DNA of 64,000 bases. Source: Vulcanimicrobiota bacterium (GTDB taxonomy: Bacteria > Vulcanimicrobiota > Vulcanimicrobiia > Vulcanimicrobiales > Vulcanimicrobiaceae). The notes beneath the pieces are model-generated. The model did no database searches and had not been told where the DNA came from. It was given only the letters and a program-made list of their open reading frames with translations. The stretch spans positions 2,208,001-2,272,000 of the forward strand of contig CAVTCS010000003.1 of NCBI GenBank assembly GCA_963733295.1, in the 5' to 3' direction. How positions within the stretch are numbered: the first letter of the stretch is position 1; each line of letters starts with the position of its first letter. Position numbers and translations under genes: made by a program. Shown one piece after another: positions 45,163 through 63,850 of the stretch.

Positions 45163-46596
45163 ATGACGGATGGTTCCAAGGCGGTGAGTCCGCGCCTAGC
45201 GGCGTTCGTGTGCGACGCGGTACGGTACGCAGCGAGCGGTTCGGACGACGACGCGCGACGGCTGCTGCGCGCGCCCTTTTCGGGCGTCCCCCGCGCGGAT
45301 GCCGGCGCGTTGCTGACGATCGCGCGACCGCGCCGCAACCTGCTCGAAACGATCGAGCAAGAACGCGTCCCGTCGGCCCGCGAAGCGCAGCTCGCGAGCC
45401 GGCGCTTCCTCAGGGCGCTCGAACAGCTGCGCGCCGCATTTCGAGCCCAAGGTGCATTGGCGCGCGAGCTCGTCGTAACCGTCGCCGCCCTCTTCGACTT
45501 GCGCGATCCCGGCGCGCGCGCGACGCTCGACTCGCTCGAGCGTGCGGCCGGCGAACTTGACGCGCTCTGCGGCGAGCGGCCCGGCACGTGGAGCGTTCGC
45601 GCACTGTGCGACACGCTCGAGTCGACCGTCGCGGAGAGCACGGGTGAGCCATTTGCGCCGGCGCCGCTTCGAGCGCTCGGTCCGCACGAGCGCGAACCTC
45701 TATATCCGGTGCGAACGCGGCGCGGTCACTTCAGTGCGTCTTCGCTCGGGACGTACGCTCAGTGCGAACGCCAGTGGTACTACAAGTACGTGTGCAGCGC
45801 GGTCGAAGACAAAAGCTCCGCCGCTTCGGTCTACGGCAGCGCCTTCCACTGGGCGCTCGAGCGTTTTCATCAGGAATATCCGCGGGCCGACTCGGCCTCA
45901 CGCGAGACGCTCGCGCGTTCGTTGCAAACCTGGATAGCAACCGCGTTCGAGCGCTTTCGCAGCGGTTTTCCGACCAACGTCGAATACGAACTGCAACGGC
46001 GCCGCGCGCGCCGCACCGCAAGCCTTTATTTGAATTGGTTCTTCGAGCGTGCGCGCAAGGCGCCGTTCGGGGTCGTGGGTACCGAAGCGAGCGTCGAAAC
46101 CGAGCTGGACGGCTACACGTTCGTCGGATACATCGACCGGCTCGATCGCGACGACGCAACCGGCGCGATCACCGTCGTCGATTACAAAACGGGGAATATC
46201 GTCGAGAACGCGGGTGCGTTCCGCTCGAAAGTCGCAAACTTTCTCGACTTTCAGCTTCCCTTCTACTATTGGGCGCGCACCGCGGAAGGCGATCGCGTGA
46301 CGCGGCTGGCGCTGATACCGCTCAAAGATTCGATCCTTGAGGTCCGTCCCGTCGAACTCGAAATCGTACCGGTTGCCGTACCGCGCAGTGGATACGACCC
46401 GGCGACGACGGGCACGATCGGAATCGACGAGCTCGAGCGGGCGCGCGCGCGCATGGTCGAGATCGCGCGCACGCTCAGCGACGAACCGCTGGAGAGATTC
46501 GCCCCTGCACAGGATCCGGAAGCGTGCCTCTATTGCGCGTACGTCAACGCCTGCCGCGAACGGCCGCTGCAGCGCGAAGACCGTTTCGGGCGATGA
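45163..46596 (+). CDS. RecB/AddB-type PD-(D/E)XK nuclease with helical N-terminal region
   Basis: FSASSLGTYAQCERQW, GSAFH, GYIDRLD, VVDYKTG, QLPFY, CLYCAYVNAC. Confidence 0.85.
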   Translation: MTDGSKAVSPRLAAFVCDAVRYAASGSDDDARRLLRAPFSGVPRADAGALLTIARPRRNLLETIEQERVPSAREAQLASRRFLRALEQLRAAFRAQGALARELVVTVAALFDLRDPGARATLDSLERAAGELDALCGERPGTWSVRALCDTLESTVAESTGEPFAPAPLRALGPHEREPLYPVRTRRGHFSASSLGTYAQCERQWYYKYVCSAVEDKSSAASVYGSAFHWALERFHQEYPRADSASRETLARSLQTWIATAFERFRSGFPTNVEYELQRRRARRTASLYLNWFFERARKAPFGVVGTEASVETELDGYTFVGYIDRLDRDDATGAITVVDYKTGNIVENAGAFRSKVANFLDFQLPFYYWARTAEGDRVTRLALIPLKDSILEVRPVELEIVPVAVPRSGYDPATTGTIGIDELERARARMVEIARTLSDEPLERFAPAQDPEACLYCAYVNACRERPLQREDRFGR

Positions 46597-48827
46597 ACCT
46601 TCAGTTGCTCGCGCCTAGCGACGGGCAGCGTCGCGCGCTCGAGTACCCGCTCGACGGCGATCTGCTCGCAGTCACCGGCGCCGCCGGCAGCGGCAAGAGT
46701 GCGGTCTTGCTCGAGCGTGCCGCGCGTGCGGCGGCTAGCGCGCCGGGAGCGGTGTTGCTCGGCGCGGCCACGCGGCGCGGCGTTGCACGCATCCGCGAGG
46801 CCGCATCGGCGGGCGCCGCCTTCGCGACCTGCCGGATCGAAACGCTCGAAACGATCGCGCTCGAGATTCTCGACGAGCGCGCGGCCGCAAGCGGAGCGAA
46901 CCGCCCCGAAATCATCGACGAAGTGCGCGCCGCAGCGCTCTTCCACGCGGTCGGCGCGGAGCTGTTCTCGCTCGAATGGACCGAGCTGCTGGGAGCGGAG
47001 ATCGATCCCGAGATCACCGGCTTGCGCGCGCCGGAGTTCTTTGCCGACGCGGCTTTCCGTCTGATCCGGCGCCTGCGCGCCGCGCTCGTCTCGCCCGCTG
47101 AATTTCGCACGCTTAGCCTGCGCGGCGCAACCGAATTCTACGGCAACCCGCCGAATCTGGCCGACGCCTCGCTGCTGATGGATACGCCTGAGAAATACCG
47201 CGCCTCGCTGCGCGTTTCTCCGGCCGAACTCGAGCGGCAACGCGGGCGTGAGATCGACCTGATCAAAGTGCTGACGCGCTTGTACGAATCGTACGTCGGT
47301 TCGCTCGTGGCGCGCGGTTGCATGACCGAGGTGGACGCCGTCTACGAAGCCACGCGTTTTCTTGGGAGCGAAGCGGACGCGGCCGCTCGAGTGCGTGGGC
47401 GGTTGCGGCACGCGGCAATCGACGACGCGCAAGATCTCAGTACCGGACAGATCGCTCTCTTGAAGGCGATCTACGGCGAACGCCTGGCCGGCGTAACGCT
47501 CGCGGGCGACGCCGCGCAGGAGACGCGCGCATTCGCGGGCGCGCGCGGAAAACAGCTTCTCCGCACGGCAGCGGAGAAGATCGAACTCTGCGAGCAGTAC
47601 CGCTGTCCGCCGGCGATCGTGCGGGTCGCCGAAATCGCGACTAAGGCGTCGCGCGTCCAGCCGCCGCCGGCCGGAGTCTCCGCCGTCGAACTCTACCGTG
47701 CGGACACGTTAGCGGATGAAGCGCGCTACGTCGCCGAAACGATCGCAACGTTGCTCGCGCGAGGCGTCGCGCCCGGACGAATCGCGGTTATTACGCGTAA
47801 CCTGCGCAGCGCACATCCGTTCGCGGGCGCGTTGCTGGCGCGCAACGTCCCGCTGGACGTGGCGGGCGAAGCGAGCCTCTACGAGTTTCCCGCGACTGCG
47901 GACGCGCTCGGCGCGCTTTGGGCTTTTGTGGATCCATACCGTCACGATTGGTTGCTGCGCAACCTCGAGTCACCCTGGTTGAGCCTCTCCGACGCAAGCA
48001 TCGGGGTGCTTTGCGGCGAGGCTTCGGATCCGCAAGAGCTGCTGTTCGACATGCCGAGCGAAGAAGTCGACGAGACGCGCCGGCGTTGGGACCGGCGCCG
48101 CGATCTCCGCCTCGCGCGCAACGTGCTCCGCGGCGACGTCGATGCCGAGTTGCCCGCCGAGGCGCGCGAGCGCCTCGCCGAGTTCCGCGCCGCGCTGTTG
48201 CGCTGGGAACAGCTGGAGCGCAGCCTCACGCTACCGGCGCTGGCACAAACGATCCTCGCCGAGACGACGCTGGCCGCGCTTGCGGGCGACGCGCGCGGAA
48301 ACTTCGCGCGCGCTTGCGTCGTGCGCTTGTTGCGCGAGATCGACGCGTTTGCCCGGCGTCTGCCGCTCGCGACGCTGGGCGACTTTCTCGAATCGGCGGA
48401 GGAAAGCGCGGCCGCGGACGCCGATCTGCTGACGCTCGACCCCGTCGCCGCGAACTGCGTCATGCTCCTCGACGTGGAGGCCGCCAAAGGCCGCGAATAC
48501 GAGCACGTCTTCATCCTCGACGCGCGGGCCGGAGCTTTTCCGCGCTACTACACGCCCGACACGTTCTTGTTCACGCCCAGGTTCGGAATGCTTCCAAAGG
48601 AGAACGTCGGGGACGAAGCGCGCGCTTCACGCACCGCAAAGTTTACCTACGCCCTCCATAGCCTCGACGTTCGCGAGAAGTACAATGAAGAGGAGCGCCG
48701 CGCGTTTGCGTGCGCTGCGCTGCGCGCCCGCGAGCGGCTGTACGTCAGCGCCTCGGGCCGGCCGACCAAAGCACGTTCGACGCCGGAGATTCTCGAAGAG
48801 CTTTTGGCCGCTCGCGCCGGGTCGTAG
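46593..48827 (+). CDS. UvrD/AdnA-like SF1 helicase without nuclease domain
   Basis: GAAGSGKS, IDDAQD, GDAAQ, YRCP, AKGREY, EEERR...RARERLYVS; ATGA overlap with nuclease gene. Confidence 0.85.
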   Translation: MNLQLLAPSDGQRRALEYPLDGDLLAVTGAAGSGKSAVLLERAARAAASAPGAVLLGAATRRGVARIREAASAGAAFATCRIETLETIALEILDERAAASGANRPEIIDEVRAAALFHAVGAELFSLEWTELLGAEIDPEITGLRAPEFFADAAFRLIRRLRAALVSPAEFRTLSLRGATEFYGNPPNLADASLLMDTPEKYRASLRVSPAELERQRGREIDLIKVLTRLYESYVGSLVARGCMTEVDAVYEATRFLGSEADAAARVRGRLRHAAIDDAQDLSTGQIALLKAIYGERLAGVTLAGDAAQETRAFAGARGKQLLRTAAEKIELCEQYRCPPAIVRVAEIATKASRVQPPPAGVSAVELYRADTLADEARYVAETIATLLARGVAPGRIAVITRNLRSAHPFAGALLARNVPLDVAGEASLYEFPATADALGALWAFVDPYRHDWLLRNLESPWLSLSDASIGVLCGEASDPQELLFDMPSEEVDETRRRWDRRRDLRLARNVLRGDVDAELPAEARERLAEFRAALLRWEQLERSLTLPALAQTILAETTLAALAGDARGNFARACVVRLLREIDAFARRLPLATLGDFLESAEESAAADADLLTLDPVAANCVMLLDVEAAKGREYEHVFILDARAGAFPRYYTPDTFLFTPRFGMLPKENVGDEARASRTAKFTYALHSLDVREKYNEEERRAFACAALRARERLYVSASGRPTKARSTPEILEELLAARAGS

Positions 48828-48830
48828 ACC

Positions 48831-50480
48831 TCAATCACTGGCGCTCGACCCGTAAAGGTGACGCTCACCGGACAAGAGTGCGAGCGCCCGACGTGGCGCC
48901 TCGCGTTCTTCGATGGTGAGGAGGTCCCGCCGCAAGGCGTCGTGCCGCAATGCTAAGCGCTGGAGGTCTTCGGCAAGCCGATCGAACATTGCCGCTTCGC
49001 GCCGCGCGAGCGCTGCAGCGGCCCGCTCATCTCGCATCGCGGCGACGGTTAGTCGGAGATGCGGCAGGCAGAGCGTTGTCAAGTCTACGACTTCACTGAA
49101 GCTCGTCTGGTCCAAGCGCCGAGCCAGCGCTGCGACGTGACGCGATTCCCCGTCCGCTCGCGCCGCGCAAGCCAGGCACGACAGACCGGCGGCTACGAGC
49201 GTGTCGATGGTACCGCGCAGGCTGGACGATGAACCGGTCCATCGGGCGCCAGCTACCAGCGAAGAGGCCAGCCCGCGTAGTAGTTCCGGATAGCCCACGG
49301 CGATCCCGAGCGGCGAGGCGTACGCTTCGTACTGCCAGGTGTGGCTACCACACAGGCCCCGGCGAGCCGCGTGCGCCTTACGGGCGGCGTCGCTCGCACT
49401 AAGCTCGTAAGGAAGGCGCTGGAAAAACGCCGCGAGCTCCTTAGCGACGTTTGCGCAGACGTCGCAGCGCCCAATCGGACGAATCCAGATCGAGTTATCT
49501 TTCTCGGTGCGGTCCCCCAGCTGGGGGGTCAAAGGCGACTCGTTGTCTTTTTGGAGCGCGTCTAGAAGCCGGAAACGCTCCGGACCGAGCGGCGTGCTCG
49601 CGACTAAGTTGGTAACTCGATCGGTCATCTGGCGGAGAAAGGCGTCGATTTTCCGGGCGAGGAGAAACTCGAGCAGGGCGGCCTCAAGCGCCGGAATGCC
49701 GCTCTCCTCAAGGAGCGCAGCTTTAGACCCGAGCTTCGCTTGCAGTCCATCGCGCGCAGAGACTGAAAGAATGGGCGACGTGGCCGCCGTAAGCGTCCCA
49801 AGCCGCTCGGCAACGTATGCTTGCACTTCGTTTCGTTCGCTCTTGGTGACGATGTCGTGTTTGTTGAGCGCAACGAATACTTCGGTCCGAGCAACTCGGG
49901 CCCGTTCTATAAATCGCACCTCGTCCTCGCTTAAGGGGCTGTCGTAGCTCGTTACGAGCAAAAGCGCGTCGGCCTCTGGAAAGAACGCTTCGGTCGTTCG
50001 CGAGTTCTCGACGACGGCGGAACCGAGCCCGGGCGTGTCGATCAACGCGAGTCCACGGCGCAGGAGCTCCGCCGGCAGATAGATATCGGCGCTCACGACG
50101 TTACGCTGGTTGCCTGGATTTCCGCGCTGGGTGATGTAATCGGGGAGCGCCGCGAGCGAAACCTCGCGGGGCGGTCCCCCTTTTTCGTACCGGACGACTA
50201 CGCTCTCGGTTGAGCCGTACAGGACCGTCGTTATCGCGGATGTGACGGGAACGGTACCGACCGGAAGGCGATCGGTGCCGAGAAGCGCGTTCATGAGCGA
50301 CGTCTTCCCGCGGTTGAAGTGCCCGACTAGAACTAGGTTGAACCGATCGGCAGCAAGTCGCGCGATAAGGTCCCGCGCTCGATCGCGTAGCCGCCTATCT
50401 TCATCGGGAAAGAGCAGCGCTGCAGAGCGAATGATTTCCGCGAGTCGAAATTTGCGCTGCTCGTAGGTTTGAAAGTCCAA
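48831..50480 (-). CDS. Bacterial dynamin-like GTPase with C-terminal Cys/His-rich domain
   Basis: G1 GHFNRGKT, G2 VPVTS, G3 DTPG, G4 NKHD; C-terminal CDVC..GLCGSH..CLAC..LCLPH. Confidence 0.88.
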   Translation of the reverse strand: MDFQTYEQRKFRLAEIIRSAALLFPDEDRRLRDRARDLIARLAADRFNLVLVGHFNRGKTSLMNALLGTDRLPVGTVPVTSAITTVLYGSTESVVVRYEKGGPPREVSLAALPDYITQRGNPGNQRNVVSADIYLPAELLRRGLALIDTPGLGSAVVENSRTTEAFFPEADALLLVTSYDSPLSEDEVRFIERARVARTEVFVALNKHDIVTKSERNEVQAYVAERLGTLTAATSPILSVSARDGLQAKLGSKAALLEESGIPALEAALLEFLLARKIDAFLRQMTDRVTNLVASTPLGPERFRLLDALQKDNESPLTPQLGDRTEKDNSIWIRPIGRCDVCANVAKELAAFFQRLPYELSASDAARKAHAARRGLCGSHTWQYEAYASPLGIAVGYPELLRGLASSLVAGARWTGSSSSLRGTIDTLVAAGLSCLACAARADGESRHVAALARRLDQTSFSEVVDLTTLCLPHLRLTVAAMRDERAAAALARREAAMFDRLAEDLQRLALRHDALRRDLLTIEEREAPRRALALLSGERHLYGSSASD

Positions 50481-50497
50481 AGCGATCGGCTTCGCCG

Positions 50498-52003
50498 CTA
50501 CGACGTCGCAGGTTCTACGAAAACTTCTCTGTAGAGATCCGGTCCGTAACTCGTCTCGAGCGGCGCTCCTTGCGCAATCTTGAAGGTACGACGTCCGTCG
50601 TCCAGGCGCTCGGCACGTAAGAAAAGCGCGGATGGTAGGTCTCGCGTCTGTAAGCCATGCGCAAACGCATATTGATGGGTCACGAAAAACACCTTGACAT
50701 CGTTCTCGATCAACGCGTCGACGATCTGACGGGCGATCTCGGAGCCTTCGCGCTCATTTGTTGCAGCGAACGATTCATTGAATAAGATCAGGGAGTTTGC
50801 CCTTAGGCCGTCGACAATGTCGCTCAGTCGGCGAAGCTCCTCATCGAACTTGCCGCTGTTCATTGTGGCGTCTTCTTCGCGCTTGTAGTGAGTGACGACT
50901 CTCTCGCAAACATCTGCACAAAGAGCCTCAGCCGGCGCAAACATCCCGCACTGCATCATCAGTTGTGCGAGACCGACGCTTCGCAGAAACGTCGACTTGC
51001 CACCCTGATTGGCACCGGTAATGATGATGAGAGTCTTGCCGTCAGCAGCGAGATCGTTGCTGACGACGGGACCGTTTGCGCTCAAAGTTAGGCTGACGTC
51101 GTAGAGGCCGGTCGCCGAATAACGCCGTGCCCCGACCGGACAGGGGGAAGGCAAACAGATCGACTCTCCCAGCTCGCTCAGCCTGTCATGCAAATTCAGG
51201 CACCCGACGTAGAACGCGAGCTCGGTTCGCAGCATCTCGAAAAAGCTCGTCAGATGCTCGGCCGACTGCGCAACCGCATTCGCCACGAGGTTGATACCGC
51301 GGTCGTTGAGCTGGGACAATGCACGCGCACCGCTTTCGTCACGGGGGTGAAGTTCGTACGAAAAAGCCGGCGCCTTCGGTGCGAAGAGGCGCGTCAACCA
51401 ATCGCCGTGCGCCGAACTTTGCTTGCGAAGAACATAATCCGTTCCCTTATTGCCTTCGCCTAAGCGCGCACTGAGCAAGATGCCGCGGTCGAATTTCAGT
51501 TCGTTGAGATGGCGCTCGATCGTTGCGAAGTATTCGTCGTCAAGTTCTTCAGCAAGGGAAGCAAAGAGCCGGCAGAAGCCCTCAGATCGGAAGGAGCTCG
51601 CATGCCGATCGACGATCGTCCGCAGCCTCCTCAGCATTGCGACAAGCATCTCCAAGAGGTTGACCGCCCGGTAGAGGATCGAGCGCGGGTGCCGGCCGCC
51701 GTCAAAATAGTGGTTTCGCCGCTTGGATTCCAAGGTCTCGACGGCGAGGTCATAGATCTCCCGGACGACCGCCGGATCGTTCATGCAGTCCTTCAGGATC
51801 TCCTGACGATAGCAGATCGTTTCGATGTCGGTAACGCTCCCGAGAACGGCCCTCTTTACGACTTCAGCCAGCGGCTTGTTGCCACTCGACATTGCGCCGA
51901 AGAGCGCTTCGAGTCCCAAGTCCGCGACGAGCGCATCCGCTTGCTGCGGCAGGTTGGCCCCGAAATCGAAATCCCGGTCCTTGTACATCAAATACGCGTT
52001 CAT
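50498..52003 (-). CDS. Small MutS-related ATPase (domain V, no mismatch-binding domain), copy B
   Basis: ITGANQGGKSTFLRS, HYKREED, GKFDEEL, LFNESFAATNEREG, FVTH. Confidence 0.9.
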   Translation of the reverse strand: MNAYLMYKDRDFDFGANLPQQADALVADLGLEALFGAMSSGNKPLAEVVKRAVLGSVTDIETICYRQEILKDCMNDPAVVREIYDLAVETLESKRRNHYFDGGRHPRSILYRAVNLLEMLVAMLRRLRTIVDRHASSFRSEGFCRLFASLAEELDDEYFATIERHLNELKFDRGILLSARLGEGNKGTDYVLRKQSSAHGDWLTRLFAPKAPAFSYELHPRDESGARALSQLNDRGINLVANAVAQSAEHLTSFFEMLRTELAFYVGCLNLHDRLSELGESICLPSPCPVGARRYSATGLYDVSLTLSANGPVVSNDLAADGKTLIIITGANQGGKSTFLRSVGLAQLMMQCGMFAPAEALCADVCERVVTHYKREEDATMNSGKFDEELRRLSDIVDGLRANSLILFNESFAATNEREGSEIARQIVDALIENDVKVFFVTHQYAFAHGLQTRDLPSALFLRAERLDDGRRTFKIAQGAPLETSYGPDLYREVFVEPATS

Positions 52004-53583
52004 GACTGGGTCCCGGAGGGAAGGCGCGCCTTGAGCTGTTCGTAGGTCAGACCGTACTTCTCCGCGATAGAAAGCGCATAGGCGCGCCCGTCCGCCGGGC
52101 GACGCAGCACCTTGTAGGTTCGCTTCGTCGGATCGGTCGGGTTGACGACGCTCACCATGCTCACCGTCTTCTCATTCAACGACGCGAGCTCGTCGAGGAA
52201 CGTTACGCAGACGCAAATCGCGTCGAGCTCTACGATCTTGTCGAGCACCCGGCGGGCTAGGAACACCGCGTCTTCGAGCGAGGTCGAACTGAAGACTTCG
52301 TTCATGATGATGATGCTGCGCGGAGTCGCGCAATCGAGGATGTCGCGAAACCGGATTAAGTCGTCTTGAAGCTTTCCCCGTAAGGTCTCGACGCGCTCTT
52401 GCTTTTCAAAATGGGTGAAAATGGAGTCGAAAAGAAATAGACGAGCGGAACTTCCGGGAACCGGACAACCGATGCTGGCGAAATGATGCACTTGTCCGAA
52501 GGCACGAGCGAAGGTCGTTTTTCCGCCTTGATTCGGGCCCGATACGACGAGGACACGCTCGGGGCCGTCGAGACGAAAATCGTTGCAGACGATCGGCGCT
52601 GACTCATTAAAGAGCTTCGTCGCCAAAGCGAGATCGAACGCCGCTCGGTCGTACACGTCCTTGTCCCGGGCCGATACTGTCGGGTAACAAAACGCGAGGC
52701 CGGCTTTCTTGAATCGCTCTGCGTAACCAAGGTATGCCATGTAAAACTGAATCTCGCGATCGAAGCGCCCGACGAGCGCGTCCGCGAACTCGCGGTTCGC
52801 GGTACAAAATTCGTCTAATCGTCGGAAAGGCTCCGGATTGAACCGAGCGACGAACCCGAGGATGATTTCTTCGACGTGATTCATGTCGACGGATTCCGTG
52901 AACGCGCACAAGTAGTTCTTTGCGGCGCTGCGCCGAAATTTGGCGAACGTAGCTGCGATTTCGTCGCTGTAGTTAGGCTCGGAGTCGTAATTTCGAACCT
53001 CGAATCGGCTGCCCTTGATGTGGATCGAGTACGCAAGCGCTTGCAAGTCGCGTGAAAGCGCGCCCACCTGCGCAGCGAGCCCGGTAAAGCGCTCCGATGC
53101 TAGGTACTCGCTTAAATAGCCGTGGAACGACCGTAGGCCGCGTGAGGTGAGGTTAAGCCCCCGCAAGCCCTCTTCGAGCGCGCGCACGGCGCTGAGATAC
53201 GTCGCTATGGCGCGCAGACACCAGGCCTCTTTGTTATACGTGTAGTGCAGTTTCTCGGCTTGAGCGAGCTGTTGCCGCATCAGGCGCATGCCGTCCGCGA
53301 ACGATACGATGCACGCGAAGGCGGCCTCTTCCTCGAGATCGCGCATGACCTCTTGCCGGTAGAGAATAGCGTCGAGGTCCCTGAGGGAATCGTAGAAGAA
53401 CGGCCTTAGATCGTACTCATCCTTCCCGTGCGTTATCGCGTCGAGGATTTGATCGAGGTTGAGGTCGTGAAAGTACTCAGGGGTGTGCCCGCGCACTGAT
53501 CGTTCCCTCTCGCCGCCCCGTTCGTAAAGGATGCTCTCGAACGTCTGCGCACGAGCGCCGTCCGGAAGAGTCTCAGTCGCCAT
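52000..53583 (-). CDS. Small MutS-related ATPase (domain V, no mismatch-binding domain), copy A
   Basis: DLNLDQI, VSGPNQGGKTTFAR, THFEKQE, GKLQDDL, IMNEVFSST, VTFLDEL; ATGA overlap with copy B. Confidence 0.9.
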   Translation of the reverse strand: MATETLPDGARAQTFESILYERGGERERSVRGHTPEYFHDLNLDQILDAITHGKDEYDLRPFFYDSLRDLDAILYRQEVMRDLEEEAAFACIVSFADGMRLMRQQLAQAEKLHYTYNKEAWCLRAIATYLSAVRALEEGLRGLNLTSRGLRSFHGYLSEYLASERFTGLAAQVGALSRDLQALAYSIHIKGSRFEVRNYDSEPNYSDEIAATFAKFRRSAAKNYLCAFTESVDMNHVEEIILGFVARFNPEPFRRLDEFCTANREFADALVGRFDREIQFYMAYLGYAERFKKAGLAFCYPTVSARDKDVYDRAAFDLALATKLFNESAPIVCNDFRLDGPERVLVVSGPNQGGKTTFARAFGQVHHFASIGCPVPGSSARLFLFDSIFTHFEKQERVETLRGKLQDDLIRFRDILDCATPRSIIIMNEVFSSTSLEDAVFLARRVLDKIVELDAICVCVTFLDELASLNEKTVSMVSVVNPTDPTKRTYKVLRRPADGRAYALSIAEKYGLTYEQLKARLPSGTQS

Positions 53584-55291
53584 GCGAAGCGCTCAGTACG
53601 TTGGGCGACGAACACGTTCCCGAAGTTTGCATGCTCGCTGCGTGCGCGAACTGCCGCAACCGATCCGCGGCCTGCTCGAGTTCGCTCGAGCGCCGGGCGA
53701 TTGCTTCAGCTTCGTCTGCGCCTTCCACCGCCTGCTGGAGCGCACGCCCCGCGTCGGCTCGCGCGCGCTCCAGAGAGGCCCCGACTTGCTGCGCGAGGGT
53801 CGCGTATCCATCTCGAATCGCTTGATTCGCGCGGTAGCGGATCCGGCCCGCGCGCCGATCGAGCTGCGCCTCGAGCTCGCTCCGCAGGCGGCGCGCCAGA
53901 AGTGTCGCCCGGACCGGCTGCGGAAGCAAGCCGTCGACGGCCCGCGCGACGAGCTCGGCTCCGGTCGTGGCTTGCTCGTCGGCGTATTCGAAGCGAAGTG
54001 CCGGGAGCTCAAAGGCCAATTCGGGCGGCGCGAGCGCGCCGAGCCCTAGGCCGGCAAGACCTTCAGCAATCGTGCTGCGTTCGAGGTCGACGGTGCGCGC
54101 GACGACGCGCTCCATGTTTCGCTGCATTCGCGCCTGGAGTTCGCGACGGACCTCTTCGACCCACGCGGTCGCAGCGGAGCCAACACCGTCGGCAATGCCC
54201 TGGCGATACGCTAACAGGTCGCCGTGCTCTACAGCGGACCGCAGCCGCTGCTCCAGGGATACGAGCGCTTCACGCTTGCGGTCCTCGAGCCGCTGCTCGA
54301 TAAGGCGCAGATCCTCGCGTGCCGCTCGATCGAGCGTGTCGACGATTTCGCCTGCGCGTCGCGGGAGTTCACTCTCGAAGGTTGCAAAGCGCTCTGCGAG
54401 CGCCGCTCGACGCTCGAGCGGCAAACGCAGCGCTTCGCGCTCGATCAGGAGAGAACGGAGCAACCACGCGGCGTCGCGTGTAGCTTTTCGGCGCAGCGAT
54501 CGCTCAAAGACTTCACGACCGTGCGCTTCGACGAAATCTCGAAACGTTGCCACGAAGTCGCCGAGTCCCTGGCCTCTTGTCGCACTCAGCGGGAAAATGC
54601 GAACGTCGCCATCCTCGCGCGCTCCGGCCAGGGTTTTGCGCGTGAACTCTATCAGTGGTTCTCGCTCCTTGTCATTGACGATTTGATCGACTTTGTTCAG
54701 CACGATGAAGAGGCGCTCCGAGGCATCGAGCACCTTACGCGCAAAGGCGAGTTCGGCCTCACCGATGGGTGGCTCGGCGCCGACCACGAGAATAGCGAGA
54801 TCGGCCCGCGTTAGCGTTTCTAGCGCAGCCCCGGTGTTGTGTGCGTACGTCGAGGCGATGCCGGGGGAGTCGATCATTGCGACCCCAGCGAGGATGGGAG
54901 CGGGCACGGTAACGGCGGCGCTCCGAACCAGCAGGCGATTTTCCGGATTGCCCTGTTCGGTGACGTAGCGCTTTAGTTCGGGGGGCGAGATCTCGAGCGG
55001 CGGCCGCGCTTCATCGAGAAACTCGATCGTTACGCGCAATGGACCGAAGCGGACGACGGTCGGGATCGCCGTAACCGGCAACATGCCGGTTGGCAGCAGG
55101 TCCGTCCCCAAAAGCGCGTTGATGAAGGTGCTCTTGCCGCGTTTGAACTGACCAGCCACGACCACGGTCAGCTCGCGCCTGCACTCCTCGTCTCGCAGCC
55201 GCTCGATCGCCGAAATCGCCGACGGGGAGCCGAACCGGCGAGCCAGTCCCAGCAGTTCTTCCGAGTCGGAATTGCCGTTACGGCCGTTCAC
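53573..55291 (-). CDS. Bacterial dynamin-like GTPase with helical stalk
   Basis: G1 GQFKRGKS, G2 LPVTA, G3 DSPG, G4 NKVD; probable GTG start 55291 (ORF open to 55396). Confidence 0.88.
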   Translation of the reverse strand: MNGRNGNSDSEELLGLARRFGSPSAISAIERLRDEECRRELTVVVAGQFKRGKSTFINALLGTDLLPTGMLPVTAIPTVVRFGPLRVTIEFLDEARPPLEISPPELKRYVTEQGNPENRLLVRSAAVTVPAPILAGVAMIDSPGIASTYAHNTGAALETLTRADLAILVVGAEPPIGEAELAFARKVLDASERLFIVLNKVDQIVNDKEREPLIEFTRKTLAGAREDGDVRIFPLSATRGQGLGDFVATFRDFVEAHGREVFERSLRRKATRDAAWLLRSLLIEREALRLPLERRAALAERFATFESELPRRAGEIVDTLDRAAREDLRLIEQRLEDRKREALVSLEQRLRSAVEHGDLLAYRQGIADGVGSAATAWVEEVRRELQARMQRNMERVVARTVDLERSTIAEGLAGLGLGALAPPELAFELPALRFEYADEQATTGAELVARAVDGLLPQPVRATLLARRLRSELEAQLDRRAGRIRYRANQAIRDGYATLAQQVGASLERARADAGRALQQAVEGADEAEAIARRSSELEQAADRLRQFAHAASMQTSGTCSSPNVLSASHGD

Positions 55292-55371
55292 GCCGTGGCT
55301 CGCAAAACTTCCGCGCGGGCGCTCGACGCGCGATGGCGGCTTCGGGAGGGTCGACGATAGTCGTTGTACAC
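55288..55371 (-). CDS. Putative leader peptide (MYNDYRRPSRSRHRASSARAEVLRATA)
   Basis: GGAG SD 9 nt upstream of GTG; TGA overlaps the dynamin GTG (GTGA). Confidence 0.4.
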   Translation of the reverse strand: MYNDYRRPSRSRHRASSARAEVLRATA

Positions 55372-55397
55372 TGCCACGGACTCCAGGTTGCTGCACT

Positions 55398-55443
55398 AGG
55401 AGTCATCAGCCGTTTCCGGCGGTCGTGGCGAACTCCATCGCCC
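55398..55443 (-). ncRNA. Fluoride riboswitch (crcB motif) no. 1, upstream of the dynamin/MutS operon
   Basis: GGGCGATGGAGTTCGCCACGACCGCCGGAAACGGCTGATGACTCCT: P1 GGCGA/TCGCC, pseudoknot GGAGT/ACTCC, P2 GCCG-GAAA-CGGC, conserved GATGG and CTGATG. Confidence 0.92.
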
Positions 55444-55685
55444 ACAGGATGGTTCTGCGGTGACTCCCGAAATCATCTCATATGAGCTGCCCGGTCCGGA
55501 GGGCGCGACGTCGCGAGGGCTGACGAAGCAGAGAAGGGACACGGGACGGCGTTCGCACGCGACACGAAAGGGTTACGCGCGAAATGTCGCGCTATCCGAC
55601 ATCGCGACTTCTGGCGATCTTGTTGCTCCAGCGCTGCAACTTTTCGTCGTAGGAAGCCAACCGCTCCCTGCAGTATAGGTATCTC

Positions 55686-55731
55686 GGGCGATGGAGTTCG
55701 CCACAACCGCCGGAAACGGCTGATGACTCCT
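55686..55731 (+). ncRNA. Fluoride riboswitch no. 2
   Basis: GGGCGATGGAGTTCGCCACAACCGCCGGAAACGGCTGATGACTCCT; followed by CTCCTC/GAGGAG SD-sequestering hairpin; TATAGG -10-like box just upstream. Confidence 0.93.
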
Positions 55732-55752
55732 CGGAGGGTGAGGAGCATTCTT

Positions 55753-55927: not shown

Positions 55928-56329
55928 ATGGGTACTCTGAGAAGATGGTGGCGCTTCGTCACCAGCGGCGTGATCGCGGAGATGCCCAGTCATGGGACGC
56001 CGGACGAGCTCGAGGCGCTGCGCACGACCAATCGCGACCTCCAGGAGCGCGTAGCTTGGCTGGATGGGCGCCTTAAGGAGGTCGTCGAGCGGTTGTATTC
56101 CATCGAACAGCAATATTCGGTCGAACACTTCCAACTCACCGAATCGCAACGCGACCTTCGAGATGAGCGAATGCGCCTGGCCGCAGCGCGCGCCGAGCGA
56201 ACGATCATTCTCTCCCGCGCTGGAGACCTGCAAGCACGAATCCGCGACTTGAAGGGGCGTCTTGCATCGCACGAGACCGTGGAAGCCTCGTTCTTCGACG
56301 ATGCACCCATCGTAGACGATTCAAAGTGA
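55928..56329 (+). CDS. Hypothetical coiled-coil protein
   Basis: TAAGG before ATG; amphipathic N-terminus, long Leu/Glu/Arg heptad region. Confidence 0.7.
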   Translation: MGTLRRWWRFVTSGVIAEMPSHGTPDELEALRTTNRDLQERVAWLDGRLKEVVERLYSIEQQYSVEHFQLTESQRDLRDERMRLAAARAERTIILSRAGDLQARIRDLKGRLASHETVEASFFDDAPIVDDSK

Positions 56330-56338
56330 GTCGATGAG

Positions 56339-57025
56339 ATGAGCGACAAGCCTGCCGCAACCGTCGGCGCGCTCTTCGACGACCTGACGCGGTCGGAACA
56401 CAAGAGGTCAGGCGCGGCGGCCGAGGATTTGGCAGCTGCAAAGGAACGGCTCTTCGGCGGCTTCCGCGAAGCGCAGCGTGCGCTGAATAGGGGATGCGAT
56501 TCCGACATTAGGTCGTCGCCGACCCTCCTGACGCGCCCGCTCGTCGTCGCGCGCACTTGCTTAGAAAACGAGTTGCTAGGAACGAGCACGCTCGCCGATA
56601 AGGCGCTCAGAAGCCACCTCTTGTTTGCGGGTTGCCAGGACATCGTCGCGTGTTGTACCCGCAGTGTGCGTGACAATGCCGATGTGCGTTTCCGGGCGCG
56701 TTTCCGGATGTTCGCGGAGGCTGTCCACGAACTCGAGTGCGAGTTCGCCGAGAAAGCACGAGTTGTGGAACCGGAAGGCGCTTCGCGCATAAAGATGCCG
56801 CGACGCATCGCCGTCCCGAGAGTCTGCCTTGATGATCTCCCAATGCCGCGACAGCCCGACGACTCGTCCGCCGCCTCGATAAATGCATGGGCGAGCGATT
56901 TGACTATGCTGCTGACCGACCGCCTTCGCGAGGCCGTCGAGGACGCACGCCGAGAGGCTGTCCGGCGTTCAACGCGCAGCGTCGCTCGTATCGTCGTCCG
57001 CGCGGCCCGGGCTCTGCACCGCTAG
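56339..57025 (+). CDS. Hypothetical helical protein
   Basis: 228-aa ORF 9 nt downstream of previous gene, ending before riboswitch 3. Confidence 0.6.
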   Translation: MSDKPAATVGALFDDLTRSEHKRSGAAAEDLAAAKERLFGGFREAQRALNRGCDSDIRSSPTLLTRPLVVARTCLENELLGTSTLADKALRSHLLFAGCQDIVACCTRSVRDNADVRFRARFRMFAEAVHELECEFAEKARVVEPEGASRIKMPRRIAVPRVCLDDLPMPRQPDDSSAASINAWASDLTMLLTDRLREAVEDARREAVRRSTRSVARIVVRAARALHR

Positions 57026-57086
57026 CTCGCGCGGCCATGAACCGCGACGCGGGAAGAGCCGCTTGGCCAACGAAGATACGAGGGAA

Positions 57087-57130
57087 GGGCGATGGGGCTC
57101 GCCCGAACCGCCGTGAGGCTGATGGCTCCT
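57087..57130 (+). ncRNA. Fluoride riboswitch no. 3, upstream of the metallophosphoesterase
   Basis: GGGCGATGGGGCTCGCCCGAACCGCCGTGAGGCTGATGGCTCCT: P1 GGGCGA/TCGCCC, pseudoknot GGGGC/GCTCC, P2 GCC-GTGA-GGC; GCTCC/GGAGC hairpin hides the SD. Confidence 0.9.
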
Positions 57131-57153
57131 GGTCGATCGAACCGGAGCGCGCT

Positions 57154-57906
57154 ATGAAGAGCCTCATTATCGCCGACGTTCACGCAAATTGGGCGGCCCT
57201 CGAAGCGCTGCCCGCTGCGGATCTTGTCGTCTGCGCAGGCGACATGGTAACTTTTGGGCCGCAGCCCGGCGCAGTCATCGATGCTCTCGCCAAGATCGGC
57301 GCTCGCTGTGTGCGCGGGGACGAAGACGATGCGGTTGCGCGCAATTTGCGGCGTGAAGCAGCGCCGGGGCTCGAGTCCGCCGCCGACGAAACCCGGGTCT
57401 GGACGCGCTCGGTCCTCACGAAAAACCAGATGCGCTGGTTGGGCGAACTCCCGTTTGAAATCGAGGTGGAGGCCGGCAGTGTGCGGCTGGCTGCCACCCA
57501 CGCGTATCCCGGCGTCATCAACCGCTACCTCCGCCCGACGCGCGAGGAACTGGAGCGTGTCGCCCGAGCATTCCCCCGAGCGAACATCGTCGTAGTTGGC
57601 CACACGCATCGCAGTGGCATTTGGCAAGTCGGCGGAACGACGATCTTGATGCCGGGAAGCGTCGGGCAGTCAAGCCATGGCGGGCATGCATCGTTTGCTC
57701 AGATCGAAGGCAGCACCGTTACCCTTCGTGAGCTTCCGTACGACGTCGACAGAACGATCGAACAGATTCGCGCCACTCCTTGGAGCGCAAGCGCAAAGGA
57801 GAGCTGCATACGCGCCCTCCAACTTGGCGCCCCGCGGCCGTACGAATCCGTTCTGCCGAAGGATGTCGAGCGTCGCTTGGCCGTAGGTCCCGCGCGCGGT
57901 AAGTGA
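57154..57906 (+). CDS. Calcineurin-like metallophosphoesterase
   Basis: ADVHAN, AGDMV, RGDED (in place of GNHD), THA, VGHTH, PGSVGQ. Confidence 0.88.
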   Translation: MKSLIIADVHANWAALEALPAADLVVCAGDMVTFGPQPGAVIDALAKIGARCVRGDEDDAVARNLRREAAPGLESAADETRVWTRSVLTKNQMRWLGELPFEIEVEAGSVRLAATHAYPGVINRYLRPTREELERVARAFPRANIVVVGHTHRSGIWQVGGTTILMPGSVGQSSHGGHASFAQIEGSTVTLRELPYDVDRTIEQIRATPWSASAKESCIRALQLGAPRPYESVLPKDVERRLAVGPARGK

Positions 57907-57930
57907 CCGCCAATCGCAGACTCAGGAAGG

Positions 57931-58290
57931 ATGGCAACCTTGGCCCAAGTCCACGAGAGTTCAAAGGCGGATCCAGGACCCGAAGCAACGCGCGCCCGAA
58001 TTCGCTCGCTCGCGGCTTTTGTTGCTTTGGTGGCGGGTGCATTCGTGCCGGCGCCTCGTGGCCAATTCCTACCATCTTCCTGGTCTTGCTGCTGTTTCTT
58101 GAGCCGATTCGAGCGAAGACCGGGTACGTCACACTTTTGATCGGCTGCATCGTAGCCGCAATCTTACCTAGCATCGGCTGGGCGATCGCTACTCACCATC
58201 TTGCGTTTTAATGCCGTGCTTGTTGCTTCCGGGCTGATCCTTGCGAGCTTAGCGCGGCTGGCCGCGCCTCGGCAAGCTGTGTCGAAGTAG
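57931..58290 (+). pseudogene. Small multi-TM membrane protein apparently broken by two compensating frameshifts
   Basis: AGGAAGG before ATG 57931; hydrophobic segments continue in the 57903 frame from ~58050 and return to the original frame at the TTTT run 58206-58209, ending TAG 58290. Confidence 0.45.
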
Positions 58291-58361
58291 CTCAAGCGCC
58301 CATGATCCCTGCCAGGAGGGTCGCCAAAGCCCATGTCTAAGAGCAGCGAAAAATTCAAAGC

Positions 58362-58411
58362 CGCGATGGAGCTCGCGTTAAGCCCACAACAACTGGGATG
58401 ATGGCTCCTAC
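58362..58411 (+). ncRNA. Fluoride riboswitch no. 4, upstream of the Ehr operon
   Basis: CGCGATGGAGCTCGCGTTAAGCCCACAACAACTGGGATGATGGCTCCTAC: P1 CGCGA/TCGCG, pseudoknot GGAGC/GCTCC, P2 CCCA/TGGG, 3' CCTAC. Confidence 0.85.
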
Positions 58412-58448
58412 TCAGACCTTCCGAGTGCGGAGCCGGCTTTGTTTCTTT
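58403..58448 (+). terminator. Intrinsic terminator forming the expression platform of riboswitch 4
   Basis: GGCTCC-TACTC...GAGTG-C-GGAGCC stem uses the aptamer 3' strand; followed by GGC TTTGTTTCTTT. Confidence 0.7.
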
Positions 58449-58487
58449 CAGCACACCTAAATCGAAACCAATTGCGGCGGGCGAGCT

Positions 58488-59438
58488 TTGGCGCAATCGA
58501 TCGCGCTTAACGCTGCGCAGTTGGCGTTCGTTCTACTCCTCTCACCGCTCTTTAGCGGGCTCTTAACCCGATGCAAAGAGATCGTTCAGTCGAAGCGTGG
58601 GCCGAGCGTCTTTCAGCCGTATCGCGACTTGCGCAAACTCTTGGGAAAAGACGAACGAATACCGGATGAGAGCACCTGGATCTTCCGAGCAGCGCCGTAT
58701 TTCGTCTTCGTCGTTCCGTTGATCGTTACGTTGCTGATCCCGGTCCTCACCGATTTTCCGCTGTTCTTCGCATTCGCCGGCGACATGCTGGCCGTTGGTT
58801 TTATTCTCGCTATCTCGGGATTTTTCTTCACGTTGGCGGCGATCGATGGAGGCAACCCCTACGGGGCAATGGGAGCGAGCCGAACCCGTATGGTTGGGTT
58901 CTTGGCCGAGCCGGTCATCATCATCGTGCTCTTCACCGTGTCGTTCGTCGCGAATTCGACAATTCCGTACATCGTGCAGCAACATTGGATTCACCCAATC
59001 GCGAACTTCTTCGCGCCATCGCACATTCTGTTGCTGATAGCATTTTTCATGATCATTCTCGCGGAGACCGGAAAGCTTCCAGTCGACAACCCAAGCGGCC
59101 ACTTTGAGCTCGCCATGATCGACGAGTCGAAGGCCCTGGAATTCTCGGGCCGCGGGGCGGCCTTAATCAAATACGGCGGCTACATGAAGTTCACGGTTTT
59201 GGCGATCGTTTTTCTCAACGTGCTGGTAGCGCCATGGGGCCTCGCTCAACATGCCTCGCCGCTAGCCGTGCTAGTTGCGGGAGGGGCAGTCGCCTTGAAG
59301 ATCTTGGCGCTCGTAGGAGCAATCGTCATCGTCGAGTCGTCGCTTGCCAAACTCCGGCTCTTTCGTATCTCGGAATTCCTTGGCGCCGCTTTCGTCATTT
59401 CGGTCACGGCGATGGTAACGCAGCTGCTGAGCTTTTAG
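58488..59438 (+). CDS. hyfC: Hydrogenase-4/Ehr membrane subunit HyfC (NuoH-like)
   Basis: RGPSVFQPYRDLRKLLGK, GAMGASR, LAETGKLPVDNP, ELAMIDE, AKLRLFR. Confidence 0.9.
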   Translation: MAQSIALNAAQLAFVLLLSPLFSGLLTRCKEIVQSKRGPSVFQPYRDLRKLLGKDERIPDESTWIFRAAPYFVFVVPLIVTLLIPVLTDFPLFFAFAGDMLAVGFILAISGFFFTLAAIDGGNPYGAMGASRTRMVGFLAEPVIIIVLFTVSFVANSTIPYIVQQHWIHPIANFFAPSHILLLIAFFMIILAETGKLPVDNPSGHFELAMIDESKALEFSGRGAALIKYGGYMKFTVLAIVFLNVLVAPWGLAQHASPLAVLVAGGAVALKILALVGAIVIVESSLAKLRLFRISEFLGAAFVISVTAMVTQLLSF

Positions 59439-59458
59439 GGCGGCGGGGATACGGAAGC

Positions 59459-60124
59459 ATGACGCTGCTCTCGGAACTCAACGCGCTCGTTCTGGGTCTC
59501 TTCATCGTCAGTACGATCGCGATGACGGTCACCCGGCAGATCGGCGCGTGCATTCAGGTCTTCGTCGCGCAGTCGCTACTGCTGGCCGCGTCGGCCTTCT
59601 TGCTCGGCGCCGTATCGCTTTCGTGGCACCTGATTGCGCTCGGGTGCATCACGGTGGTCGGTAAGGCGATCGCGATCCCCTGGTTGCTGCGCGCACTGCT
59701 GCCGAACGAGGTCCATCGCACGCGCGAGCTTTCTCAGACGATCGACGTACCGACCGTGCTGCTCATCGCACTCGGACTCACGCTGTTAGGCTACGGATTC
59801 GCCGCCCACATCGCGCACGCCGCGCCGAATCTCTCGCCTGGTAACGTCTCGACGGGGGTTGCGGGCTTGCTCGTTGGCCTGCTGCTCTTGGCCGTCCGAA
59901 GCGAGGCGGTTCCGCAATTGCTCGGCATCTTAGCGATGGAAAACGGCGCGTTCCTCGCCGGCATCGCGATTGCATCGGACTTTCCGCTCATCGCGGAATT
60001 CGCAATCGCCTTCGACGTCCCGTTGCTGACGTTCATCGTCGCACTCTTAGCGCGTGCTGCGTACCGGCAGATCGGCACGACGGAGGTCGGTGGGCTTTCG
60101 ACGTTGCGCGAGCGCGTCCGATGA
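59459..60124 (+). CDS. hyfE: Hydrogenase-4/Ehr membrane subunit HyfE
   Basis: QSLLL, KAIAIPWLL, QLLGILAMENG, PLIAEFAIAFDV. Confidence 0.88.
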   Translation: MTLLSELNALVLGLFIVSTIAMTVTRQIGACIQVFVAQSLLLAASAFLLGAVSLSWHLIALGCITVVGKAIAIPWLLRALLPNEVHRTRELSQTIDVPTVLLIALGLTLLGYGFAAHIAHAAPNLSPGNVSTGVAGLLVGLLLLAVRSEAVPQLLGILAMENGAFLAGIAIASDFPLIAEFAIAFDVPLLTFIVALLARAAYRQIGTTEVGGLSTLRERVR

Positions 60125-61554: not shown

Positions 61555-61556
61555 GC

Positions 61557-63116: not shown

Positions 63117-63850
63117 ACTGGTTCTTGCGCGGCTTGCGCGCCGGCGTGCGGACCGAGCGGGAGCCCGTGGGCCGCGACGCGGCGCTTTCCCTATCGCCTG
63201 GCCTTCCGCGTGCGACGCTGCATCCATCGACCCAAGCAGCCACCGACATTGCAAAGGTTTGCCCGACCGGCGCAATCGTTGCGGAAGAATCGGTCGCTCG
63301 CGTTCTCCAAGACCGCTGCGTTGAATGTATGCGATGCAAGGCGGCGGGGTCGAGCGCGCAAGGCTGGGACCAAAACGTCCGCGTCGCACACGCTCCCGAA
63401 GAGCGGGGATTCGATCCGCTCGATGGCAGCTTCAAGAGATCGCTCCACGTGCGCATCGTCGACGCCGGCGACTGCGGGTCGTGTTTGAACGAACTGGCGC
63501 AACTCAACGGTCCATCGTACAACCTCCACCGGTTCGGGATCTTTATTACGCCGACTCCGCGTCAGGCAGACGTGTTGCTCGTCGTCGGACCGGTGACGCG
63601 ACAGATGCGCGGCCCTCTCCGGGCCGCCTACGATGCAATGCCGGACCCGAAGCGCGTCGTTGCGGTCGGCGCGTGCGCCGCGAGCGGCGGAATCTTTGGT
63701 CCCTCCGTCATGTGTGCCGCAGGGGTGGCCGACGCGGTCCCGGTCGACCTCGTGGTCCCAGGATGCCCCCCGCCGCCGTTCGCGATCGTCCACGCGCTGC
63801 GCGCCGTGTGTGGGCAGCAACCACTCAATCTCGCGAGCGATCTGGCATGA
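63113..63850 (+). CDS. Ehr small subunit (HyfI/NuoB-like) with N-terminal ferredoxin remnant
   Basis: CPTGAI...CVECMRC; DAGDCGSCLNE, PRQADVLLVVGPVT, VGAC, PGCPP. Confidence 0.9.
   Translation: MNWFLRGLRAGVRTEREPVGRDAALSLSPGLPRATLHPSTQAATDIAKVCPTGAIVAEESVARVLQDRCVECMRCKAAGSSAQGWDQNVRVAHAPEERGFDPLDGSFKRSLHVRIVDAGDCGSCLNELAQLNGPSYNLHRFGIFITPTPRQADVLLVVGPVTRQMRGPLRAAYDAMPDPKRVVAVGACAASGGIFGPSVMCAAGVADAVPVDLVVPGCPPPPFAIVHALRAVCGQQPLNLASDLA

Follow-up and report, generated by a model that had tools for sequence, protein, structure and literature searches.

MutS4A and MutS4B were described in 2007 as patchily distributed products of adjacent genes, in which the stop codon of A overlaps the start codon of B and only the ATPase region of MutS is present (Lin, Nei & Ma 2007; PMC2190696). 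That paper lists five bacterial and two archaeal carriers, notes a distribution that looks like horizontal transfer, gives the function as unstudied and names no regulator. Fluoride riboswitches were linked to mutS in print in 2010, when the crcB motif was reported upstream of mutS and formate hydrogen lyase genes (Weinberg et al. 2010; PMC2864571), and the gene classes printed for the fluoride riboswitch in that paper and in a 2024 review include mutS, formate hydrogen lyase, Na+/H+ antiporters, enolase and pyrophosphatase (PMC2864571, PMC11139923). Here, we analyze a window of 64,000 nucleotides (the whole stretch studied; positions 2,208,001 to 2,272,000 of contig CAVTCS010000003.1, Vulcanimicrobiota bacterium, assembly GCA_963733295.1) in which a fluoride riboswitch heads an operon of four minus-strand genes. 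Two of them encode a MutS4-like pair, MutSA and MutSB, and the outer two encode dynamin-like GTPases, DynA and DynB.

A term search of the 2024 fluoride-resistance review returned neither MutS nor GTPase (PMC11139923). Our literature search found no study of the role of the MutS4 pair and no paper tying dynamins to fluoride riboswitches, the gene lists of Baker et al. 2012 lying outside its reach; as far as that search reached, dynamin-like GTPases are unreported members of the fluoride regulon. In many phyla, fluoride riboswitches precede the MutS pair and the dynamins separately, and because both gene modules recur in this setting, their arrangement in one operon is not due to chance. Our best explanation, which we hold at a probability of roughly 0.7, is that the operon is a fluoride-induced stress operon joining two separately conserved modules of the fluoride regulon that act in parallel.

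A fluoride riboswitch at the head of four linked genes

The operon corresponds to open reading frames (ORFs) at 53573-55396, 52000-53583, 50498-52003 and 48831-50480 of the window. In order of transcription they encode DynA (572 aa; 53573-55291), a dynamin-like GTPase without the Cys-rich C-terminal domain of DynB; MutSA (527 aa; 52000-53583), a MutS4A-like ATPase with MutS core and domain V; MutSB (501 aa; 50498-52003), its MutS4B-like paralog with a MutS_V domain; and DynB (549 aa; 48831-50480), a dynamin-like GTPase carrying a helical DUF6062-like domain. These coordinates bear out the tight linkage that the preliminary description had reported: DynA and MutSA overlap by 11 nt (53573-53583), MutSA and MutSB share an ATGA overlap of 4 nt (52000-52003), and a gap of 17 nt (50481-50497) separates MutSB from DynB. 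Scans for promoters and terminators inside the operon were no richer than shuffled sequence (4 versus 1.3 and 9 versus 7.8).

Two of the start codons required attention. In the DynA ORF, the sole in-frame start upstream of GTG 55291 is GTG 55396, which falls within the riboswitch aptamer, and GTG 55291 is therefore the sensible start. For DynB, the public gene call (P0125) of 487 aa would remove the P-loop (G1 at residues 53-60), while the TTG start at 50480 is supported by the aligned N-termini of relatives.

The riboswitch (RS1; 55390-55451, minus strand) forms the 5' leader of the operon. It matches Rfam family RF01734 over model positions 1-64 of 64 at 45.6 bits against a gathering score of 34 (E 1.9e-9), scores 57.2 bits with our own covariance model R1 (see below), and ends 98 nt ahead of the DynA start on the same strand. 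RS1 is thus a bona fide fluoride aptamer at the head of the operon, as had been proposed. Rfam finds four fluoride riboswitches in the window, all within 3 kb of each other, and these are every RF01734 match in the 3.44-Mb, 97%-complete genome.

Both the minimum free energy and the centroid fold of 55280-55455 predict an alternative, fluoride-free hairpin (55373-55429, minus strand), in which the 3' pseudoknot strand of the aptamer, GACUCC, and part of P1 pair with the downstream stretch GGAGUCCGUGGC. In the predicted fold this hairpin buries GGAG at 55381-55384, which resembles a Shine-Dalgarno (SD) sequence. No U-tract follows the hairpin in the sequence, and a terminator scan placed no terminator-like site there; consequently, the switch looks translational, and we infer that the modeled hairpin serves as the expression platform. 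A candidate leader ORF of 27 codons (55288-55371, minus strand) begins with a GTG 9 nt past the GGAG, and its TGA overlaps the DynA GTG (GTGA). Judged from the sequence, this leader ORF may tie translation of DynA to the switch, and the gene overlaps may extend that coupling to the remaining genes. In the absence of fluoride, the hairpin would hide the SD-like GGAG; upon fluoride binding, the aptamer pseudoknot would fold and free it, allowing translation of the short leader ORF, coupling via GTGA to DynA, and translation of the overlapping genes that follow.

The preliminary description had also suggested that the enzymes could themselves sense or counteract fluoride. Sensing by the enzymes is not needed, since this task falls to the RNA. 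A role for them in counteracting fluoride is no more than plausible.

The MutS4-like pair and the dynamin-like proteins

Pfam detects MutS_V, and no other domain, in MutSA (1.5e-19) and MutSB (3.3e-20). The two proteins are co-linear paralogs (23% identity over 441 aa, E 1e-24), each with a Walker A motif (GPNQGGKTT in MutSA, GANQGGKST in MutSB) and with Asn-Glu in Walker B. The Asn aligns onto the Asp of Thermus MutS2. This change from Asp to Asn is present in 71/71 MutSA orthologs (N428 is invariant) and in 65/66 MutSB orthologs. Fluoride has been reported to disable ClpX via Mg2+ sequestration and ATPase inhibition (2025; PMC12700350), which makes the Walker-B change notable, although a link between the two is speculation.

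The description of the pair as unrelated to mismatch repair holds. Neither the mismatch-binding domain I nor the connector domain II, Smr or KOW was detected in MutSA or MutSB with Pfam and NCBIfam. Both proteins fall far short of the NCBIfam MutS models (60-73 bits versus cut-offs of 480-642) and of mutS2 (64.5 and 74.9 bits versus 400), so that neither belongs to MutS1 or MutS2, and the genome encodes a canonical MutS, a MutS2 and one further MutS_V protein elsewhere. The KamC reactivase ATPase (NF052383) was considered and rejected, as its matches (78.1 and 33.9 bits versus 300) cover the ATPase core only. MutSA and MutSB fit the published description of MutS4A/MutS4B, being adjacent paralogs with a stop/start overlap that retain the ATPase region alone. 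They extend it in that the family here is very large, fluoride-regulated and marked by the near-invariant Walker-B Asn, with a predicted heterodimer interface in the middle region. In fact, 8000 of 8000 scored candidates from a word-indexed search matched MutSA. The best 120 relatives, the window's own protein aside, are mostly about 511 aa long and 51-60% identical (mostly 54-60%), and those with names range from Rhodopila to Moorella, Syntrophaceae and Spirochaetes.

The MutSA monomer model has a predicted local distance difference test (pLDDT) score of 83.8, with low confidence at residues 1-12 and 212-234. Foldseek aligns it to MutS2, MutS, MSH2 and MSH3 over about 470-595 alignment columns. 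The list is headed by the MutS2 of B. subtilis in a structure with a collided disome (7qv3, E 5.6e-19), the highest target-normalized TM-score is that of the Thermus MutS2 core (7vuf, 0.60), and the latter is also the best sequence match among solved structures (7.1e-17). Like the operon proteins, these MutS2/RqcU core structures show neither domain I nor domain II. They differ in several respects: the operon proteins lack the Smr nuclease and KOW, measure about 500 aa versus 785, carry NE rather than DE in Walker B, and are predicted to pair as two paralogs rather than as a homodimer.

A MutSB relative adjoins MutSA in 78 of 80 MutS-anchored loci (tblastn; exceptions L051 and L061, the latter a 1.4-kb contig). 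We modeled MutSA residues 20-527 together with MutSB residues 1-492 in three runs, alongside three controls. The heterodimer reached an interface score (ipSAE) of 0.68 (runs 0.65, 0.69 and 0.68), compared with 0.00 for the best control; no fewer than 96% of contacts are common to the runs, with a partner pLDDT of 82 or more. In the calibration of this score, 116 of 157 solved complexes and 2 of 215 mismatched pairs attained the same mark, figures that apply only roughly to models made with our own alignments. Together, the near-universal adjacency and the complex model support a MutSA-MutSB heterodimer. Tandem MutSA-MutSB pairs, two per locus, occur in L032 and L065.

That dynamin-like GTPases flank the two paralogs is shown by Dynamin_N matches of 3.4e-23 (83 bits) for DynA and 1.7e-25 (90.4 bits) for DynB, against a cut-off of 27 bits. 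DynA carries G1 GQFKRGKS, G3 DSPG and G4 NKVD, and DynB carries G1 GHFNRGKT, G3 DTPG and G4 NKHD; the region of the G2 threonine is conserved in the family alignment. By sequence, the nearest solved relatives of DynB are IniA (6j72, 1.5e-21), the Campylobacter dynamin-like protein (DLP) pair and the Nostoc bacterial dynamin-like protein (BDLP). The DynB model (pLDDT 90.4) leads to the same structures (Foldseek: IniA 3.4e-14, BDLP 3.3e-13, Cj-DLP) and displays the helical stalk and overall fold of BDLP and IniA. DynA and DynB share Dynamin_N with G1-G4, and DynB also the helical stalk of its model, with IniA, Campylobacter DLP1/DLP2 (5owv) and Nostoc BDLP (2j68), and, as is often the case for bacterial dynamin-like proteins, two different dynamin genes share one locus. 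In contrast to these relatives, DynB has a DUF6062-like helical domain with a double Cys3His motif instead of a trunk/paddle, no hydrophobic membrane segment was found, and the genes are placed under a fluoride riboswitch. A hydrophobicity search detected no transmembrane or strongly hydrophobic segment in any of the four operon proteins. The most hydrophobic 19-residue windows (Kyte-Doolittle means up to 1.7) sit in the GTPase and ATPase cores, and an amphipathic site may be present.

The C-terminal 210 residues of DynB (about 335-545) form this helical domain with its two Cys3His motifs, whose residues C339, C342, C377, H380, C435, C438, C471 and H474 are invariant in 52 aligned relatives. 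In a HMMER search of 1.84 billion representatives, the domain was recovered in 1028 clusters with an E threshold of 0.001, and in 512 when this was tightened to 1e-10, hosted by proteins of about 550 aa, about 830 aa or 190-370 aa. DUF6062 (PF19538) matches DynB itself at 12.6 bits, below the gathering cut-off of 27; of the 52 relatives, 41 give a match at E up to 1, with 5.2e-10 as the best value. All of the ESM Atlas clusters closest to the domain belong to DUF6062 (score 0.95), and the twin CxxC...CxxH motifs have the same spacing in both. The domain is likely a distant DUF6062 member; in DynB it is joined to a dynamin GTPase, while the proteins of the Atlas clusters stand alone and are about 215-231 aa long.

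Distribution of the modules and competing readings

We assembled 80 MutS-anchored loci from one-genome-per-species contigs (991,755 bases) and 80 DynB-anchored metagenome loci (671,402 bases), the latter by a scan from a 10-sequence alignment, the 52-sequence alignment being too diverse. The covariance model R1 was built from 15 riboswitches. RNAalifold gave the pseudoknot helix only (6 pairs), so R1 is mostly a sequence model and was for this reason checked against Rfam on two subsets.

In the MutS-anchored loci, R1 finds 128 matches (E up to 0.1) in addition to the four known ones of the window, and 62 of the 80 loci carry one or more riboswitches that score 30 bits or higher. With MutSA as the reference, 38/80 loci have a same-strand match of this strength no farther than 500 nt upstream, and 6/80 have a weaker one there. 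In 17/80 the riboswitch is farther upstream, mostly behind dynamin, enolase, antiporter or major facilitator superfamily (MFS) genes, and 6/80 have too little upstream DNA. The DynB-anchored loci yield 138 matches (E up to 0.01), with a match of at least 30 bits in 61/80; a same-strand riboswitch lies within 500 nt of DynB in 13/80 (3 weak) and farther upstream in 38/80. The whole 3.44-Mb genome that contains the window, taken as background, has 4. The fluoride tie drawn from RS1 holds across phyla for both modules.

Ten R1 matches below the Rfam gathering score (26-42 bits) occur in the ten-locus DynB subset, in L109, L115, L116, L137, L141, L151 and L154. Several of these are 70-84 nt long and lie upstream of metallophosphoesterase operons (L109, L137, L141, L151, L154), and may be variant aptamers with an enlarged loop.

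Dynamin genes are present in 19/80 MutS-anchored loci by tblastn (20 with a C-terminal fragment in L065; 17/80 by ORF clustering), and MutS genes in 19/80 DynB-anchored loci (6/26 among loci of at least 12 kb). The dynamins of the MutS-anchored loci are of at least two types, the DynB type with twin Cys motifs (7 loci) and the DynA type without them, and a third type with G1 GRVSSGKS also occurs. DynA-related genes follow riboswitches in L042, L054 and L084. In five large or complete genomes with the MutS pair and no dynamin within 7 kb, Dynamin_N matches lie about 1.4 and 1.9 Mb away in two, 21 and 41 kb away in two, and in G033 are limited to P-loop fragments. The linkage of dynamins and MutS is far above chance for a rare gene family. 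Since co-location is seen in only 19/80 loci each way, the order varies and the riboswitches are often separate, the dynamins and the MutS pair are best read as two separable modules of one fluoride regulon and not as an obligate four-protein complex.

The preliminary description had instead taken the four proteins for one heteromeric complex. Of that proposal, the MutSA-MutSB heterodimer is supported, with both adjacency and the complex model behind it, while the four-protein unit is unlikely to be the general case, although it may apply to this operon. A single nucleoside triphosphatase (NTPase) machine, in which a MutS-like clamp is coupled to a heterotypic dynamin pair, would be in keeping with four genes that are translationally coupled or nearly so, and the arrangement has parallels. 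The order of the window, DynA..MutSA-MutSB-DynB, recurs in L025 (Niastella vici), there with a riboswitch between DynA and MutSA; MutSB adjoins DynB in L099, L116 and L146; DynB adjoins MutSA in L111, L128 and L155; and a dynamin adjoins MutSA in L014, L042, L054 and L084, or is separated from it by a small gap in L056. However, in either locus set 61 of 80 loci have the one module and lack the other, and both the order and the type of dynamin beside MutS vary. Separate riboswitches or divergent and opposite-strand layouts occur as well (L017, L062, L109, L121), and one of the five large genomes with the MutS pair, G033, has no full Dynamin_N match. We therefore consider a single machine unlikely.

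Under the preferred reading of two parallel modules, MutSA and MutSB would be an obligate heterodimer that works as an ATP-driven clamp, has a changed magnesium site and acts on some fluoride-damaged target. The two soluble dynamin-like proteins may, by analogy with their relatives, act at the membrane in repair or remodeling under hydrogen fluoride (HF) or acid stress. The two modules would thus work side by side rather than as one fixed four-protein machine. The membrane role is supported by the membrane context of the related loci, which includes cyclopropane synthase, CrcB and antiporters.

Several observations weigh against this reading. Among the MutS-anchored loci, 18/80 carry no riboswitch of at least 30 bits and 13/80 have no same-strand riboswitch upstream of MutSA; among the DynB-anchored loci, 16/80 have no riboswitch at all, every one of these on a contig of at most 9.2 kb, and 23/80 have none upstream of DynB. 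R1 is also laxer than Rfam, whose gathering score confirmed 12 of 19 R1 matches in a 20-locus MutS subset and 25 riboswitches in ten DynB-anchored loci where R1 gave 35. As solved MutS dimers exist, the heterodimer score may partly reflect likeness to them. The confident contacts lie in the middle region (MutSA 116-248, MutSB 104-257) and not in the ATPase domains that join solved MutS dimers, and they take in a stretch that is disordered in the MutSA monomer model; the interface predicted there brings together MutSA 184-189 and MutSB 175-180. Without a hydrophobic segment in the dynamins, membrane action is argued by analogy only. The leader ORF and the SD sequestration derive from a single predicted fold with an ordinary z-score (-0.57), and a physical complex would fit the tight coupling of the four genes just as well.

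A further-reaching view, which we regard as quite unlikely, sees the MutS4A/B heterodimer and the DUF6062-bearing dynamins as an undescribed branch of fluoride defense that repairs Mg-dependent NTPase machines and membranes. The Walker-B Asn would keep the MutS4 nucleotide site working under Mg2+ sequestration or in the presence of Mg-fluoride transition-state mimics. The clamp would open up complexes locked by fluoride, such as ribosomes that hold trapped GTPases, in the manner of MutS2 on collided ribosomes, and the dynamin pair would reseal or reshape the membrane that HF crosses on its way in. Such a system would operate here without a recognizable fluoride exporter.

Another proposal is that the MutS4 pair is a MutS2/RqcU-like rescue factor that clamps and splits stalled or collided ribosomes when fluoride traps translational GTPases or starves them of Mg2+, with the dynamins as an unrelated membrane arm. 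The top fold match to MutS2 on a collided disome and the best TM-score and sequence match to 7vuf speak for it, as does the inhibition of Mg-dependent ATPases via Mg2+ sequestration reported in PMC12700350. However, MutS, MSH2 and MSH3 chains score nearly the same as MutS2, Smr and KOW are absent, the mutS2 scores (64-75 bits) are far from the cut-off, and no ribosomal or translation genes recur in the neighborhoods, which renders the proposal improbable.

A role on DNA, in damage tolerance or in the control of recombination under fluoride stress, appears similarly improbable. The MutS core and ATPase fold are retained, an AddAB-like nuclease/helicase pair adjoins the operon, though convergently, and two papers suggest 'DNA metabolism' (PMC2190696) and 'DNA repair (mutS)' (PMC2864571), both assumed from the MutS name. 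Against this, no mismatch-binding domain was detected, the monomer model shows a short clamp region (212-234) with low confidence, and no DNA-repair genes recur; the neighbors are metabolic, ion-transport and membrane genes.

Finally, a dynamin (LeoABC-like) anti-phage system with MutS-like partners is very improbable: in PADLOC both dynamins match LeoA (2.4e-15, 1.3e-14) and LeoBC weakly, at a level that does not exceed dynamin homology in general, the MutS proteins match nothing there, and ion riboswitch control is accompanied by enolase, CrcB, antiporter and pyrophosphatase neighbors in both locus sets. LeoABC itself was rejected as an assignment, as the matches stay at the level of the dynamin and do not extend to the LeoA plus LeoB/C gene set.

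The surrounding island, its origin and biological meaning

Neighbor counts for the MutS-anchored loci, which rest on greedy longest-ORF calls, single-linkage clusters and Pfam on one representative each and are heuristic, place enolase near the MutS pair in 27/80 loci and an MFS transporter in 18/80. These are followed by DUF190 (13/80), an antiporter-like subunit (12/80), CrcB (11/80), a zinc-ribbon-HEAT protein (9/80), metallophosphoesterase and Na+/H+ exchanger (6/80 each), pyrophosphatase and Usp (4/80 each) and CLC (3/80). The zinc-ribbon and HEAT-repeat protein (about 139 aa) lies beside dynamin or enolase in the fluoride islands of L005, L009, L016, L017, L020, L029, L035, L052 and L074. 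The third dynamin type (about 700 aa) directly precedes CrcB and DUF190 genes in L164-L166 and L074, and is behind its own riboswitch in L164-L166, where it is a second dynamin.

Around DynB, the commonest layout is riboswitch, metallophosphoesterase, cyclopropane-fatty-acid synthase, an uncharacterized gene of about 320 aa, and DynB. The operon of metallophosphoesterase, cyclopropane-fatty-acid synthase and DynB is found in L137, L139, L141, L150, L151 and L154. Near most such operons lies a 255-aa AAA_16-like ATPase, usually with a pyrophosphatase behind another riboswitch.

In the window, the other three riboswitches lie on the plus strand, divergent from the operon. RS2 (55687-55731; Rfam 49.6 bits) is overlapped at its 3' end by a terminator-like hairpin (55727-55745) and is followed by two ORFs of 133 and 228 aa, possible genes (55928-57025, plus strand). 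Neither has a Pfam match, and the 228-aa ORF has no NCBIfam match either; the 133-aa ORF is coiled-coil with weak SMC/Rad50-like matches only. RS3 (57079-57138; Rfam 48 bits) ends 16 nt ahead of the likely ATG of a metallophosphoesterase (57154-57906, plus strand; probable ATG 57154), in which Metallophos_2 matches at 1e-18 from residue 90 of the long ORF. Metallophosphoesterases of this kind also often lie near DynB, in 20/80 metagenome loci. A 102-aa ORF with a hydrophobic tail (57903-58211, plus strand) comes next. RS4 (58353-58417; Rfam 39.7 bits) precedes a formate-hydrogenlyase/Mrp-like membrane complex (58488-63850 and beyond, plus strand) with NADHdh, Proton_antipo_M, Complex1_49kDa/30kDa and Oxidored_q6 domains. 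On the other side of the operon, the AddAB-like pair (45163-48827, plus strand), a PD-(D/E)XK nuclease and a UvrD-like helicase, runs convergent to it, with 3 nt between the end of its helicase ORF and the stop codon of DynB.

The printed gene classes of the fluoride riboswitch regulon named at the outset are all represented in the island or in related loci. In contrast to the regulon as described, this genome shows no match to CrcB (PF02537) or to a CLC channel (PF00654) at 97% completeness. The usual exporters are possibly missing or unrecognizable, despite the four fluoride riboswitches.

The GC content falls to 0.585-0.606 at 50001-54000 and 58001-60000, while the rest of the window is mostly at 0.62-0.69. 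We compared 30 relatives (18 of the same family, 5 of the same order and 7 of the same class; the unpublished G009 is included, and the conclusion is the same without it). A single one, G014, has a MutSA ortholog, which at 50% identity is no closer than cross-phylum relatives and is accompanied by a nearby dynamin and five riboswitch matches. This match (L188, G014:C4:1559395-1560885) contains one in-frame TGA, possibly reflecting a broken gene or a match across a gene junction. The same-genus genome G001 (83% complete) has neither a MutSA ortholog nor a dynamin, and its one riboswitch lies ahead of a Na+/H+ exchanger. The dip in GC and the presence of the MutS pair in only 1/30 relatives suggest from the sequence that the island was horizontally acquired. 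Apart from the island, the genome encodes a separate pair of dynamins of about 900 aa.

Fluoride riboswitches provide a rare direct clue to the trigger of genes of unassigned function. Followed from this operon, they lead to two families: the MutS4 pair, which turns out to be very large and highly conserved with a changed catalytic magnesium site, and the DynB-type dynamins, a second large family by its 1028 representative C-terminal domain clusters alone. Bacterial dynamins mostly lack a known physiological signal, and with NaF at low pH as a defined inducer both families can be put directly to experiment. These findings are also relevant to the question of what else fluoride harms in cells, apart from enolase, phosphatases and pH balance.

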